A model generated the notes under the pieces. That model saw only the letters and a list, made by a program, of their open reading frames with translations. It was not told the origin of the DNA and made no database searches. This document shows, one piece after another, positions 19,990-62,252 of a stretch of DNA of 64,000 nucleotides; position 1 is the first letter of the stretch; every line of letters begins with the position of its first letter. Origin of the DNA: Candidatus Nomurabacteria bacterium (GTDB taxonomy: Bacteria; Patescibacteriota; Minisyncoccia; Phycocordibacterales; UBA5272); NCBI GenBank assembly GCA_029288775.1, contig JARIGQ010000001.1:29044-93043 (forward strand). Direction: 5' to 3'. The position numbers and the translations under genes are program-made.

Positions 19990-20630
19990 TATGAGCACTG
20001 TTAATGATGAAGAACACGAAAATTACTAGCTAAAAACCGCAGGCAAGTGACGTTTCGTTACGCGCCCGCCGGTAAGGCGGATTTTCTTTTCTAAAAATTG
20101 TTACAGGGGAGGTTCGTTGACAATAGAATCCCGTGCACAACACGCGCAACAATACTGTTATCCAGTAGTAGTAATATTCACTGGGGTCTAGCGGAGTTTG
20201 TAGTACGGGGAACATGAAAGATAATCAATGCACAAGTAGCTTGTAAACCTGCTTGTGCAGCACGCACATAACAATGGAGCGGTCCGGAGTTATGTGGTAG
20301 TTATGTTTCCTAATAGGAACATAAGAGCATACGGTGGATGCCTAGGCTCTAACAAGCGATGAAAGACGTGATCAGGCGGCGATACGCTTCGGGGAGGTGC
20401 CTAATAACCTTCGATCCGGAGATTTCTGAATGGGGAAACCTCATACGAGTAATGTTGTATGGTCTTAGAGAGCATTCTCAAGACGCGCACCCAGGGAAGT
20501 GAAACATCTCAGTACCTGGAGGAAAAGAAAACAAAAGTTATTCTGCAAGTAGCGGCGAGCGAAAACAGAGAAGCCCAAACCAGCACACCACTTTGCTTTC
20601 AATTGATATCGTTCATGTATGTTTATAAGG

Positions 20631-20987
20631 GGAAAAAAGTTCTTTGCCCGCCTACCAAGGCGTGCACATATCCGATTCATCGGATATGGCGGGTCTCAAT
20701 TAGGGAAGCAGCCATGAGGTGAGCCTCTGTGAGACCGAATGAGATACCAGAGGTTGACGTACGCTTGTTGGTGACGTTGACCGGAGCGCCCGAAAGCGCA
20801 AGCTAACGGGAACAACGCACACGAAATCTCTCGTGTGCGTTGACAATGCCGTAAGGCTTCAAGGTGCTGACAAAAATGCCTTACGGAAGCTGGCCAGGCT
20901 GTGAACGATCGCATCGGCTTGGTTGGAAGGTGAGAGGCCGCAGGAACCCCCGCTCTTTAAAGTTTTGCCGATTATAAATCGGCTCTC
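20631..20987 (+). other. Structured insertion of about 357 nt in 23S domain I, closed by a roughly 50-bp imperfect inverted repeat (20581-20630 with 20988-21048); IVS-like
   Basis: Flanks CAGCACACCACTTTGC...ATGTATGTTTATAAGG and CCTTATAAACATACAT...GCAAAGTGGTGTGCTGG are reverse complements. No counterpart in E. coli 23S helices 9-10. Confidence 0.6.
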
Positions 20988-21251
20988 CTTATAAACATAC
21001 ATGAACGAATACGATATCAATTGAATTGAAGGCAAAGTGGTGTGCTGGGGTAGTAAGACAGAAACGTAGATTTCTAGAAGAGTTACAAAAGGTAAATATA
21101 GACTAAGTTGTTGGAAAGCAACGCCACAGAAAGTGATAGCCTTGTAGTCGAAATATTTATCTCTCTTTTGTTTCTGATCTTGAGTAGTTCGAGACACGAA
21201 TAGCTCGGATGAATCAGCCGGAACTAACCGGTAAGGCTAAATATTGTTAGA

Positions 21252-21297
<46 letters not shown>

Positions 21298-22772
21298 GGA
21301 AGGGGAGTGAAATAGAACTGAAACCGTATGTTTACAAAGAGTAGAAGAGGTATTTATACCTCGACTGCGTGCCTATTGAAGAATGAGCCAACGAGTTGTA
21401 GGTTACTGCAGGCTAAGTGGTATAAAGTCACGGAGCCATAGCGAAAGCAAGTGTTAATAGCGCGAACCAATTGTAGTAGCTTACAGACCCGAAGCCGGAT
21501 GAGCTTACCATGAGCAGGGTGAAGCAGTGCGAAAGCACTGTGGAGGCCCGAACCAGTAGGTTGTACGACTCCTTTGGATGACTTGTGGTAAGGAGTGAAA
21601 AGCTAATCGAATTCGGTAATAGCTGGTTCTCTCCGAAATAGTTTTTGGACTAGCGTCATGTGTTCCCTTTGGGGGTAGAGCACTGGAAGGTTTTGACTAG
21701 TAGAAATACGGCAACACCTATCAAACTCCGAATACCAAAGGTTAAAAACATGGCAGTAAGACCACGGGGGCGAAGCTCCGTCGGTCAAAAGGGAAACAGC
21801 CCAGATCTCAAGTTAAGGTCCCTAAGTATAGATTAAGTGTATAGCGAGGAGGTGGAGTTTCATTGACAATGAGGATGTTGGCTTAGAAGCAGCCATCATT
21901 GAAAGAAAGCGTAACAGCTCACCCATCGAGAGACTCTGCGCCGTAAATGATCGGGACTAAAATCTATCACCGAAACTGAGGGCTTCCTATTTATAGGGAG
22001 CGGTAGGAGAGTGTTCCACTCTGCGCTGAAGCGGAAGGGGTAACCCACCGTGGAGCGTGTGGAAGTACGAATGTTGGCACAAGTAACCGCAAGGAAGGTG
22101 AGATCCCTTCCCGCCGAAAGAATAAGGTTTCCTTTGCAATGATTGTCAGCGAAGGGTTAGTCGGGCCTAAGGAGATGGCAAACGCCGGATCCGATGGACA
22201 TAAGGTTAATATTCCTTAACTTGGTAGTAATGTGATGGGATGACGGGGTGTAGTATGTAAAGCGTCTTATTGGATTGACGTTTATTGTGTAAGTGGCTTG
22301 TGTAGGGAAATCCGCACGAGTATACCGCAAGCACCGTATGAAGGTGAGGGGCAACCCGAGCCAATTTTACAAAGCACGCCTCCGAGAAAAGTCTCTACAT
22401 TCTGTGAATACAGAACGTCTTCTTGTGCCTTTTACTAGGTACGAGCTTGCTTGTATCTAGATCATCTAGGTACAAGAAGATGCTTAAGTTACTATTAATC
22501 CGTACCGCAAACCGACACAGGTATTCGAGTCGAGTAGACTAAGGCGAACGAGTGATATCTCCCTAAGGAACTAGGCAAAAAAGCGATCGTAAGTTAGCGA
22601 TAAGATCTGCCCATAGCAATATGGGCCGCAGCGAAAGTTTCCCTAGCGACTGTTTACCAAAAACACAGCTTCCTGCGAACACGTAAGTGGATGTATAGGA
22701 GGTGACGCCTGACCAATGCGGGAAGGTCAAATATCGGCGGTGCTTCGGTGCTGGATGATATAAGCCCCCGTC

Positions 22773-22804
<32 letters not shown>

Positions 22805-23018
22805 TCTGATCATATCTATGATGTGGTCAGAACGGACTAGGACGGTTATAGGGAATTTGGTTTAAATAAAGTAAAAACAGTCTAATTGTGTACGCTTCAT
22901 AAAGCTACCTGTTGCATCGAAATATGCATTCAGTCCAATGTGATTAACGAGAGACCAACGTCACACATCTGACCATTAGGTTGAAGATGAAGATAGAGTC
23001 CAACTTGAGGAATAGTTG
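22805..23018 (+). other. Group-I-type intron in 23S at the E. coli U1917 site (214 nt)
   Basis: Interrupts the universal GGUCCUAAGGU|AGCGAAAUUCC. 5' exon ends in U and the insert ends in G. P7-like R/S elements GGACUAG and AAGAUAGAGUCC. P9 hairpin CAACU-tgaggaau-AGUUG before the terminal G. P1/IGS pairing was not found. Confidence 0.55.
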
Positions 23019-23588
23019 AGCGAAATTCCTTGTCTGGTAAGTTCAGACGTGCACGAATGGCGTAACGACTGGGGAACTGTCTCAGGGAGTAGCTCGGTGA
23101 AAATACAGTGGGGGTGAAGATGCCCCCTAGCTGCAGATAGACGAAAAGACCCCGTGAGCTTTACTCTAGCTTGGTATTGCAAGTGTTCAATTACTGCGTA
23201 GTGTAGTGGTGAGAGGTTGAAGGTATGATTTCGGTTGTACTGGACTCGTCGATGAAACAGCCATCTGTAATTGGGCACTTGCTAACGTGAACGGAAAAAA
23301 CGTTCGCAGACAGTATCTGGTGGGGAGTTTAACTGGGGCGGTTTCCTCCCAAAAGGTAACGGAGGAGTATATTAAGGTCATCTAGGCGCGAATGGAAACC
23401 GTGCCGATAGCGCAAGGGCATAAGATGGCTTGACTGTGAGACGGGCATGTCGAGCAGACGCGAAAGCGGGTCCTAGTGAACCTACTCTTGGCTTTAGACG
23501 CCGGAGCAGATTAACGGATAGAAGCTACCACGGGGATAACAGGCTAGTTGTGCCTAAGAGTTCATATCGACGGCACAGTTCGGCACCT

Positions 23589-23942
23589 TAACTTTAATCG
23601 GGGTGCGTCAGGAGCAATCCTGTAGCAACACATGTACAATCGTCAAATAAATAATATGTACACAAGAAATCTTGGCTTATAACGGTGAAACCCTTATGCA
23701 TGAACACCATAAGGGCAATACCGTGGGAAGTTTATATGTAAGAAAGCGATCACTCCAATTGTATTGGAGAGCTGCACACCTCAAAATGTGATTACATGTA
23801 TAACCTCGTAGAGACTTGTCACGCATGTGACGGAGTTGTGGTTCAAAGAAGATAAACCATAGCTAATACGCCAACGCCGCCTTTGATCGGGCGGATGAAG
23901 ATATAGTCCGATCCTTCCAGTAATGGAAGACAAATACGACAG
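23589..23942 (+). other. Group I intron in the 23S peptidyl-transferase region near E. coli 2500 (354 nt)
   Basis: Interrupts GGCACCU|CGAUGUCGG. IGS GGGUGC (23601-23606) pairs with exon GCACCU, with U.G at the splice site. S element AAGAUAUAGUCC is an exact consensus match. R-like AGAGACUUG. P9 hairpin CUUCCA-guaa-UGGAAG. Terminal G. Confidence 0.7.
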
Positions 23943-24088
23943 CGATGTCGGCTCATCTTATCCTGGTGGTGGAGAAGCTACCAAGGGTTTGGCTGTTCGC
24001 CAATTAAAAAGATACGTGAGCTGGGTTCAAACCGTCGTGAGACAGGTTGGTTTCCTATCTTCTGCAGCCGTTCGAATATTGAGAAGAT

Positions 24089-24119
<31 letters not shown>

Positions 24120-24474
24120 TGACCTCTGGTGTGTGGGCTCTAGCGCCAGCTGGACCGCCCAGTAGCTATGTCGGGAATGGATAACCTCTGAAAGCATCTA
24201 AGAGGGAAGCCAACTTCAAGATAAGTATTCGTTGAGGGTCGTAAGAGATGATTACGTTGATAGGATCTAAGTGTACGCACAGTAATGTGTTTAGCTGAGG
24301 ATTACTAATTACCCGAATCCTATTAGGAAACATGATTATCACAAATAATCATCGTGCATCTTTCATGTGGTGAGAGGAGGTTGAAGAGTCTGATACCAGC
24401 AATGGTCGCTTACAATTTGGCTTCCTCTCACCACGTGAAGATTTGGTTCTTTCATGTTGTGAACGATATATGAT

Positions 24475-24650
24475 GGGGATGTAGCTCAGTTGGTAGAGCG
24501 TTTCCCTGGGGGTTGGGTGTCAACGCCCGACTTGTCTCCCAGCTAGTTGCCGAGTACAAAAGGCTTAGGCAAAAGGACTGCCGCCGACGAGGTGGAGGAA
24601 GGGGGAGAGCAGGGGGAAGGTCGCAGGTTCAAATCCTGCCATCTCCACCA
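24475..24650 (+). tRNA. tRNA-like gene (probable tRNA-Pro, anticodon GGG) interrupted by a roughly 100-nt insert in the anticodon loop; CCA encoded
   Basis: Acceptor GGGGATG pairs with CATCTCC. Canonical D-arm GCTC-AGTTGGTA-GAGC. T-arm GCAGG-TTCAAAT-CCTGC. Anticodon stem TTTCC pairs with GGGAA only across about 101 nt (about 24512-24612). Confidence 0.45.
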
Positions 24651-61954: not shown

Positions 61955-62252
61955 TATATGTCTTTGTCTGTAAGCCGAATTCTGTTTTTGTGTAGACATG
62001 TATCTTGTCCCGCCATTGCTGTCGAGATCTAGCGACACTCCTTAGTATTGCTAATAAGGCACGGTCTTGCACACGCGTATGTATTTAGCCGTTTCAGCCG
62101 GACTGAACCGGATCGTTTCTGTTCGCAACACGGTGGTCACCCACGACGGGCGTTACCCGCTACGTTTCCACAGTGAAGTGGTGTGTGTTCGGACTTTCCT
62201 CACCGTTTCCGGCGCGTCTACCCAACAAAGAACTTTTTTAGTATACCATATA

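Follow-up and report, generated by a model that had tools for sequence, protein, structure and literature searches.

A 23S rRNA intron family of group I descent at position 1931 in Patescibacteria, compact and lacking P4–P6

The DNA analyzed here is a stretch of 64,000 nucleotides (nt), called the window below, from a Candidatus Nomurabacteria genome (GenBank assembly GCA_029288775.1, contig JARIGQ010000001.1, positions 29,044 to 93,043). Its 23S ribosomal RNA (rRNA) gene carries an insert of 214 nt at window 22805–23018 (+ strand; intron base 1 is 22805). The reading that we consider probable, based on the sequence and its comparison with relatives, is that this insert is an intron that derives from the canonical group I introns of the same site, that it belongs to a widespread and conserved Patescibacterial family of 187–262 nt without open reading frames (ORFs), and that it is still spliced by the group I route. 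The family keeps the P3–P9 half of the group I fold and has additional pairings to both exons, which we call clamps. It lacks P4–P6 and the U·G wobble at the 5' splice site.

The host gene is a full-length bacterial 23S rRNA gene (window 20311–24327, + strand; 2209 bits in an Rfam search of the window) and apparently the only one in the window. Its 4017 nt compare with 2925 positions in the model, so that its inserts must total more than 1 kb. An earlier note on this DNA, made from the letters alone, had pointed out that a conserved 23S string is split by 214 nt, and indeed GGUCCUAAGGU and AGCGAAAUUCC are separated by exactly that length: the 5' exon ends in AACGGTCCTAAGGT, the insert runs tctgatc...aatagttg, and AGCGAAATTCC follows. 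The large subunit rRNA model, searched against this region alone, matched the flanks at 22780–22802 and 23019–23045. The borders are unique, with no sliding possible. They leave U as the last base of the 5' exon and G as the last base of the insert, in keeping with the boundary rule of group I introns and with the same note.

The site needs correction, however. The earlier note had placed the insert at U1917, but in Escherichia coli rrlB GGTCCTAAGGT has its end at position 1931, and the insertion site is therefore after U1931 (L1931). BLAST likewise equates window 22646–22804 with E. coli 1770–1931 and window 23019–23588 with E. coli 1932–2500. L1931 ranks among the classic sites of group I introns, with examples in Simkania, Thermotoga, Synechococcus, and organelles (PMC1995217). 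In bacteria of the candidate phyla radiation (CPR), site 1931 is 23IS7, a group I/LAGLIDADG site, and group I introns at L1931 in these bacteria are thus already known (PMC11270868). The insert adjoins helix 69 at the subunit interface. An ORF search of the insert found none of 50 amino acids or more, as had been claimed. Its 214 nt encode neither a LAGLIDADG nor a GIY-YIG homing endonuclease, and a regular-expression scan of the six-frame translation of the whole window gave no convincing LAGLIDADG motif.

The elements that we assign to the intron and its exons are as follows, with intron numbering in parentheses.

22787–22800, + strand: exon strand of Pex, CUAUAACGGUCCUA, E. coli C1914–A1927, the loop and 3' strand of helix 69; complementary to intron 34–47
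22801–22804, + strand: exon strand of P1, AGGU (A1928–U1931); pairs with ACCU at 22907–22910
after U 22804, + strand: 5' splice site
22805–22831, + strand: hairpin Ha (1–12/16–27), beginning at intron base 1
22834–22838, + strand: X1, GGACU (30–34), 5' strand of the long-range helix with Y1
22839–22851, + strand: X2+, AGGACGGUUAUAG (35–47), the 5'-exon clamp, complementary to exon C1914–U1926
22852–22903, + strand: variable A/U-rich region (48–99) with semi-conserved GUAAAC and UAAUC.UAC; aligns poorly
22904–22910, + strand: guide (internal guide sequence, IGS), GCUACCU (100–106)
22912–22929, + strand: P2 hairpin (108–114/119–125), with loop GAAA here and GUAA or GGAA in relatives
22932–22936, + strand: Y1, AGUCC (128–132), partner of X1, directly upstream of P3
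22939–22965, + strand: P3, UGUGAU/GUCACA (135–140/156–161), closing a 15-nt loop, UAACGAGAGACCAAC
22951–22955, + strand: P7 5' strand, GAGAC (G147, bulged A148, G149, A150, C151); partner GUCC at 22998–23001
22966–22989, + strand: P8 hairpin (162–185)
22990–23001, + strand: S element, J8/7 AAGAUAGA (186–193) plus the P7 3' strand GUCC, with starred RF00028 posterior probability
23002–23017, + strand: P9 hairpin (198–200/211–213)
23018, + strand: terminal G (omega G; 214), with the 3' splice site after it
23019–23030, + strand: 3' exon, AGCGAAAUUCCU, in which AGC pairs with the guide (P10) and AUUCCU with the P9 loop

The descent of the insert is seen most directly in its relatives. We scanned public genomes (one per species; S-like element no more than 35 nt from the 3' exon) and public metagenomes (5' exon, then GACTRGGAC within 20–50 nt), each scan giving at least 120 loci, and excision of the inserts revealed several lineages of L1931 introns. 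The common type measures ~625–640 nt, is found in Acidobacteriota, Eremiobacterota, Proteobacteria, Chloroflexota, and others, and opens with a guide of textbook form, (C)GCU-A-GCCUUAG, after which comes AUAUGCGGGAAA (P4). The second lineage begins with a hairpin from intron base 1 and continues with (A)GGACU(A/G)GGAC(U/G)GUUAUAG, as the window intron does. It numbers at least 109 unique introns at L1931, all sharing the 5' domain. Among the matches listed, hosts that are named are almost always Patescibacteria (Nomurabacteria, Parcubacteria, Paceibacterota, Zambryskiibacteria, and Magasanikbacteria; also metagenome-assembled genomes (MAGs) labelled Saccharibacteria), and about two-thirds of the introns are, like that of the window, 187–262 nt long. 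In its 23S exons the window shares 96% identity with a Parcubacteria MAG (L031) and 90% with a Nomurabacteria MAG (L065), and in the introns 78–79% with either; the values for L031 (96% in exons and 78.5% in introns) fit vertical descent under structural constraint.

Some members of the second lineage retain the full group I core. Of these, L105 (Candidatus Magasanikbacteria; 279 nt), L200 (250 nt), and L135 (247 nt; type L135/L198) score 51.3, 56.1, and 65.9 bits, respectively, against the Rfam group I model RF00028, all above the threshold of 50. In each, the match starts near AGCUGCCU and covers only the part from the guide to the 3' end, which makes the first 60–100 nt a lineage-specific addition that separates the guide from the 5' splice site. 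From the guide on, the compact introns are collinear with these three, the shared order being guide, P2 with a GNRA loop, AGUCC, P3 5' strand, an interval that differs, P3 3' strand, P8, GAAGAUAGAGUCC, P9, and G. The difference lies inside P3. There the full-size relatives have ~70 nt, AUAUGCUGGAAA-P5-AAUCAGCAGG-P6-CUCAGAGACUAGA, comprising P4, P5, P6, J6/7, and the P7 5' strand, with AGAGACU/CA downstream of AAUCAGCAGG in L105, L135, and L200, whereas the compact introns have ~15 nt, UAACGAGAGACCAAC in the window. Collinearity everywhere except in this loop shows that the compact family arose from a bona fide group I intron by deletion of P4–P6. In sum, the full-core relatives and the window intron occupy the same site and share the 5' domain (Ha, X1:Y1, the helix 69 clamp, and the guide position), P2 with its GNRA loop, P3, P8, the S element, and a P9 loop complementary to the 3' exon. 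The relatives differ in having P4–P5–P6 inside the P3 loop, in a guide GCUGCCU that gives a U·G wobble, and in exceeding the Rfam threshold.

The guide of the window intron had escaped the earlier note, which reported no P1/IGS pairing. GCUACCU is the exact reverse complement of the ligated junction AGGU/AGC: GCU pairs with the 3' exon AGC (P10), A103 with U1931, and CCU with AGG (P1). One guide thus provides both P1 and P10, and the base opposite U1931 is A rather than the G of a wobble. A P1 drawn from the first 47 nt of the intron was rejected, as that stretch offers no U·G register and is taken up by Ha, X1, and the helix 69 clamp. At the other end, the P9 loop AGGAAU (23008–23013, intron 204–209) is complementary to the 3' exon AUUCCU (+7 to +12). 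Between them lies a P3–P7–P8 domain with consensus J8/7 and a P7 of the guanosine-binding type, built from the R-element remnant AGAGACCAAC (intron 146–155) and the S element, with pairs G147–C197, G149–C196, A150–U195, and C151–G194 and A148 bulged. This is the layout of the canonical G-binding helix, which in Tetrahymena consists of C262–G312, A263, G264–C311, A265–U310, and C266–G309. No P4 (P/Q) motif is present in the insert, whereas the relatives have P4 inside the P3 loop. P4–P5–P6, with P/Q, J4/5, and most of J6/7, is absent, the P3 loop being 15 nt.

This fold is strongly supported by covariation. A MAFFT alignment (A1) of 37 family members, extended into the exons by 18 nt on the 5' side and 12 nt on the 3' side, was scored over 61 pairs, pseudoknots included, with controls in which the 3' partners were slid by 1–3 columns. 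Standard pairing occupies 95.3% of cells versus 34.7–42.6% in the slid controls, and two-sided changes occur in 30 of the 61 pairs and 337 cells, versus 51–83 cells in the controls; none of 500 shuffles reached any observed measure. Two-sided changes are found in all 10 pairs of Ha, 6 of 7 in P2, all 6 in P3, 3 of 4 in P8, and all 3 in P9. P3 is paired in 97.7% of cells and the outer stem of P8 in 97.3%, a fifth P8 pair being backed by RNAalifold. The P9 stem is paired in 100%, with AU/UA/GC swaps in 18 of the 37 sequences; the hairpin that the earlier note saw just before the terminal G is therefore genuine. Given no prior structure, RNAalifold recovered Pex, Ha, P10, P2, P3, P8, and P9. Neither the alignment nor RNAalifold supports any helix in intron 48–99.

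In the exon-binding helices, the exon side cannot covary; there the intron sides vary only in ways compatible with pairing. P1 is paired in 99.3% of cells, P10 in 100%, and Pex in 94.8%, and the intron-side changes in Pex are all wobble-compatible (A/G opposite U1926, U/C opposite G1921, and A/G opposite U1917 and U1915). Where the exons do change, the intron follows: in L105, exon position 1921 is C rather than G and faces a G in the clamp, and the P9 loop tracks a polymorphism in the 3' exon, GGAAU with AUUCC versus GGUAU with AUACC (3' exon AAAUACC).

Part of this evidence bears on P7. The earlier note had paired GGACUAG (intron 30–36) with AAGAUAGAGUCC as P7. The latter is a genuine J8/7–P7 element with high RF00028 posterior probability, but GGACU pairs and covaries instead with AGUCC at intron 128–132, with a G–C to U–A swap in 5 of the 37 sequences (UGACU with AGUCA) and GGAUU with AAUCC in L105. 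P7 itself covaries across subfamilies: GACUAU with AUAGUC in L211 and GGCCAUA with UAUGG(U)CC (UAUGGUCC) in L129 and L220, all without P4–P6, and GACCA with UGGUC in the L200 type, GACUAGA with AUAGAGUC in L105, and GAUACCA with UGGUAC in the L153 type. An alternative P7 between X2 GGAC (intron 36–39) and GUCC is compatible with the variation within the subfamily, where neither side changes, but it has nothing in its favor and is disfavored because the full-core relatives have X2 together with a canonical R and because R and S covary across subfamilies. We also rejected a kissing interaction of the P2 loop (GUAAU) with the semi-conserved AUUAC, as the loops vary among GUAA, GAAA, and GGAA and the motif shows no matching changes.

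The elements specific to splicing are conserved in a set selected independently of them. This set comprises 51 unique metagenome introns of at most 270 nt without P4 motifs, among the matches listed, with a mean pairwise identity of 68%. The 5' exon and the X1/X2 motif were the sole criteria of selection, which leaves everything downstream unbiased. The terminal G is present in all 51. The guide is exactly GCUACCU in 42; 7 have GUUACCU-, GCUAUCU-, or GCUACUU-type guides, transitions that keep a G·U pair with the exon; and 2 have GCUACCC. GAGUCC is kept in 48, and AGAGACCA(A/G)C is exact in 44. Every compact intron has A as the central base of the guide, and none of the 51 has G there, whereas G occupies this position in at least 23 of 28 P4-bearing relatives (2 of the 28 gave no guide match, and a few were regular-expression mis-hits). 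Loss of P4–P6, and hence of the J4/5 wobble receptor, is therefore accompanied by loss of the wobble.

The scans also yielded observations on other L1931 introns. The canonical introns of ~625–640 nt, which presumably contain homing endonuclease genes, are frequent in non-CPR MAGs (L001–L120), with hosts in Acidobacteriota, Eremiobacterota, Gammaproteobacteria, Chloroflexota, Planctomycetota, Nitrospirota, and Chlamydiota, and far outnumber the few bacterial examples reported in earlier literature. Subtypes without P4–P6 represented by L211, L129, and L220 (metagenome, 208–231 nt) have a well-paired P7 of 6–7 bp and a diverged helix 69 clamp; this may reflect repeated loss of P4–P6 or later diversification of the compact form. 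In a full-core subgroup (L153/L234, L125, L177/L226, L188, and L222; metagenome), R is GAUACCA and S is AUAUGGUAC, which means that the guanosine-binding G–C pair of P7 is replaced by U–A. By our boundary call, introns of the L153/L234 subgroup end in C rather than G, and many relatives of 750–860 nt have a terminal T. The odd termini and P7 pair of the L153/L234 subgroup may reflect a changed nucleotide specificity or a shifted 3' splice site.

We infer that the RNA is still spliced by the group I route because only splicing needs a guide to both exon ends, a terminal G, and a J8/7–P7 core, all of which are held fixed while the surrounding helices drift in a compensatory manner. CPR rRNA insertions have, moreover, been reported as removed from transcripts (PMC11270868), which we count in favor of this reading. 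In the mechanism that we propose, guanosine would attack after U1931, and the 5' exon would then attack after the terminal G. The P3–P9 half would serve as the catalytic center. The long exon clamps and the tethered P1–P2 domain would place the splice sites, substituting for the lost P4–P6 scaffold and wobble receptor; the long-range X1:Y1 helix closes the P1–P2 region onto P3. Splicing may be slow or aided by host factors, and it would free the helix 69 strand and so allow the rRNA to fold. The long clamps are also found in the full-core relatives and therefore predate the deletion; their prior existence may have made loss of P4–P6 tolerable. A bolder form of this idea, which we advance only tentatively and hold to be rather less probable than its converse, is that the family constitutes a natural and widespread class of group I ribozymes that splices without P4–P6 and the U·G wobble, in which the clamps (13–14 bp to helix 69 and 6 bp to the 3' exon) and P1–P2 position the sites on a bare P3–P9 and helix 69 folding is, as a by-product, coupled to intron removal.

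Several observations count against the main reading. Both public scans preset some motifs by construction. On its own, the insert is ambiguous: an Rfam search at the gathering threshold (50 bits for RF00028) gave no group I match on it, permissive filters gave only 19.7 bits (22804–23015; E = 0.095 in a 5-kb search and 0.005 for the insert alone), and its folding energy is ordinary relative to shuffles (z = –1.44), so that the structure rests on comparison and not on thermodynamics. In the window subfamily P7 has only four Watson–Crick pairs, with C152/A193 and A153/G192 mismatched, and neither of its strands varies in the main compact subfamily, so that its support comes from comparison across subfamilies. 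Furthermore, P4–P6, J4/5, and the U·G wobble matter for catalysis and 5' splice-site choice in canonical ribozymes such as those of Tetrahymena and Azoarcus, and Watson–Crick replacement of the wobble strongly impairs the first step. Their loss argues for weak or absent autocatalysis. On the other hand, Ikawa, Shiraishi, and Inoue reportedly found in 2000 that P4–P6 deletion mutants of the Tetrahymena ribozyme retain some activity, as a "minimal catalytic domain." Taken together, this background makes weak, assisted, or noncanonical excision a serious alternative, although distinctly the less probable one.

The strongest rival is that the insert is a catalytically dead group I relic whose fold persists, with any excision carried out by host nucleases, so that the 23S rRNA is fragmented or retains the insert as an expansion segment. 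We regard this as unlikely but deserving of weight. The loss of P4–P6 and of the wobble and the sub-threshold Rfam score are what a relic would show, and the same gene has another insert, of 453 nt, that resembles an intervening sequence (IVS). In the account of Everett et al. (1999) as cited in PMC11270868, the L1931 intron of Simkania negevensis remained unspliced in mature 23S rRNA, which would mean that the site can tolerate an insert. A relic, however, would have no need of the guide, the terminal G, J8/7, or the P7 core, yet in the 51 relatives these are invariant or change only compatibly with pairing; nor would its P9 loop need to follow a polymorphism in the 3' exon. The position beside helix 69 at the subunit interface, in what is apparently the only 23S gene of the window, also speaks against retention of a dead insert.

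The remaining two possibilities fare much worse. The earlier note took the insert for a small group I intron, with GGACUAG and AAGAUAGAGUCC as P7, and a complete canonical intron of this kind would have to hide P4–P6 in its middle. It does obey the U...G boundary rule, and RF00028 aligns end to end, over model positions 1–253. But this alignment omits 113 model positions in the middle, the P3–P6 region, and is confident only at UGAAGAUAGAGUCC, which is J8/7 plus the P7 3' strand; GGACU covaries with AGUCC at 128–132 and not with the S element; and the P/Q motif is missing, though it lies inside the P3 loop of relatives. We therefore consider a complete intron very improbable. The note's assignment to group I holds by descent and for most of the architecture but not for a complete intron, as P4–P6 is absent and U–A replaces U·G. 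It had named lack of both a cmsearch match and a P3–P7 core fold as the outcome that would speak against it; what we found lies halfway, a weak sub-threshold match with P3, P7, P8, and P9 present and P4, P5, and P6 absent. Still less probable is that the insert has no relation to introns and is an RNase III-type IVS or expansion segment. Bacterial and CPR 23S genes commonly contain such inserts (PMC11270868), and the 453-nt insert of this gene is probably one. But an IVS replaces the tip of a helix, with its ends forming a long stem, whereas the insert here breaks a conserved single-stranded string, and its ends do not pair with each other, each forming its own local hairpin (Ha and P9). Its homology to bona fide group I introns of L1931 already contradicts this explanation.

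Other features of the window lie in or near the same gene. A second intron-like insert (L2500; window 23589–23942, + strand) follows E. coli U2500, is 354 nt long, and has a terminal G; at 43.7 bits, slightly below the RF00028 threshold of 50, it resembles an ordinary ORF-less group I intron. The 453-nt insert (20589–21041, + strand) lies at the tip of a helix in 23S domain I, and has no match in Rfam. Its two ends make up a long inverted repeat, CACCACUUUGC...GCAAAGUGGUG, of the sort typical of an RNase III-type IVS or expansion segment. Between 23S and 5S is a transfer RNA (tRNA) gene (24475–24647, + strand; Rfam 52 bits) that ARAGORN missed. Its acceptor stem has the Ala-type G3·U70, and its anticodon loop carries an insertion of ~100 nt with 60% G+C (about 24510–24609), whose borders are ambiguous; the anticodon is GGC if the cut is at 35/36. 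This insertion is below the size of a normal group I intron, and RF00028 gives no match to it. No 16S rRNA gene was found within the 64-kb window, and the 23S–tRNA–5S cluster is thus unlinked from the 16S gene. An RNase P RNA on the opposite strand (61955–62233, – strand; 103 bits) is short, with 279 nt versus 367 model positions.

P4–P6 is generally treated as a universal part of the group I core, and its J4/5 reads the U·G wobble that marks the 5' splice site. The compact family has dropped both and keeps all its other splicing-specific elements under selection across dozens of divergent genomes. Should it splice, it would establish a smaller catalytic core in nature and show an alternative way of choosing splice sites. 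It bears on ribozyme evolution and on how small self-splicing or circularizing cassettes might be designed. In the searchable literature we found no description of a natural P4–P6-less or "smallest" group I form, although absence there is not proof. There is also a consequence for annotation. Surveys have used RF00028 at E < 1e-4 (PMC13011429) or, likewise, the Rfam intron model (PMC11270868). As the compact introns score far below the Rfam threshold, such surveys would probably leave them among "unclassified" CPR rRNA insertions, so that introns would be undercounted and rRNA annotation complicated.

Three known systems invite comparison. The intron of the Azoarcus pre-tRNA-Ile, at ~205 nt, is commonly named as roughly the smallest group I intron that self-splices in nature. 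It resembles the window intron in size, in lacking an ORF, and in the GNRA loop of P2, and differs from it in having a complete core of P3–P9 and P4–P6 and a U·G wobble. In the Ikawa constructs, as in the window intron, the P3–P9 half alone is said to bear the G-binding site and J8/7. Those molecules were made in the laboratory and are reported to have weak activity under special conditions, whereas the window intron represents a natural, conserved, and widespread form with additional exon clamps. Finally, the L1931 introns of Simkania negevensis, Thermotoga spp., and Synechococcus spp. (PMC1995217) and of CPR site 23IS7, including the I-ShaI intron (PMC11270868), occupy the same site and share the J8/7–P7 consensus, the P10–P1 logic of the guide, and the terminal G. 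Many introns of this kind came up in our scans. Those known systems are 650–700 nt long, with a complete core and a gene for a LAGLIDADG homing endonuclease, and in the non-CPR type the guide, GCCUUAG, is at the extreme 5' end and forms a U·G wobble. The window intron, in contrast, is 214 nt long, has neither ORF nor P4–P6, carries its guide 100 nt in, behind an extra 5' domain, and sets a U–A pair at the 5' splice site.

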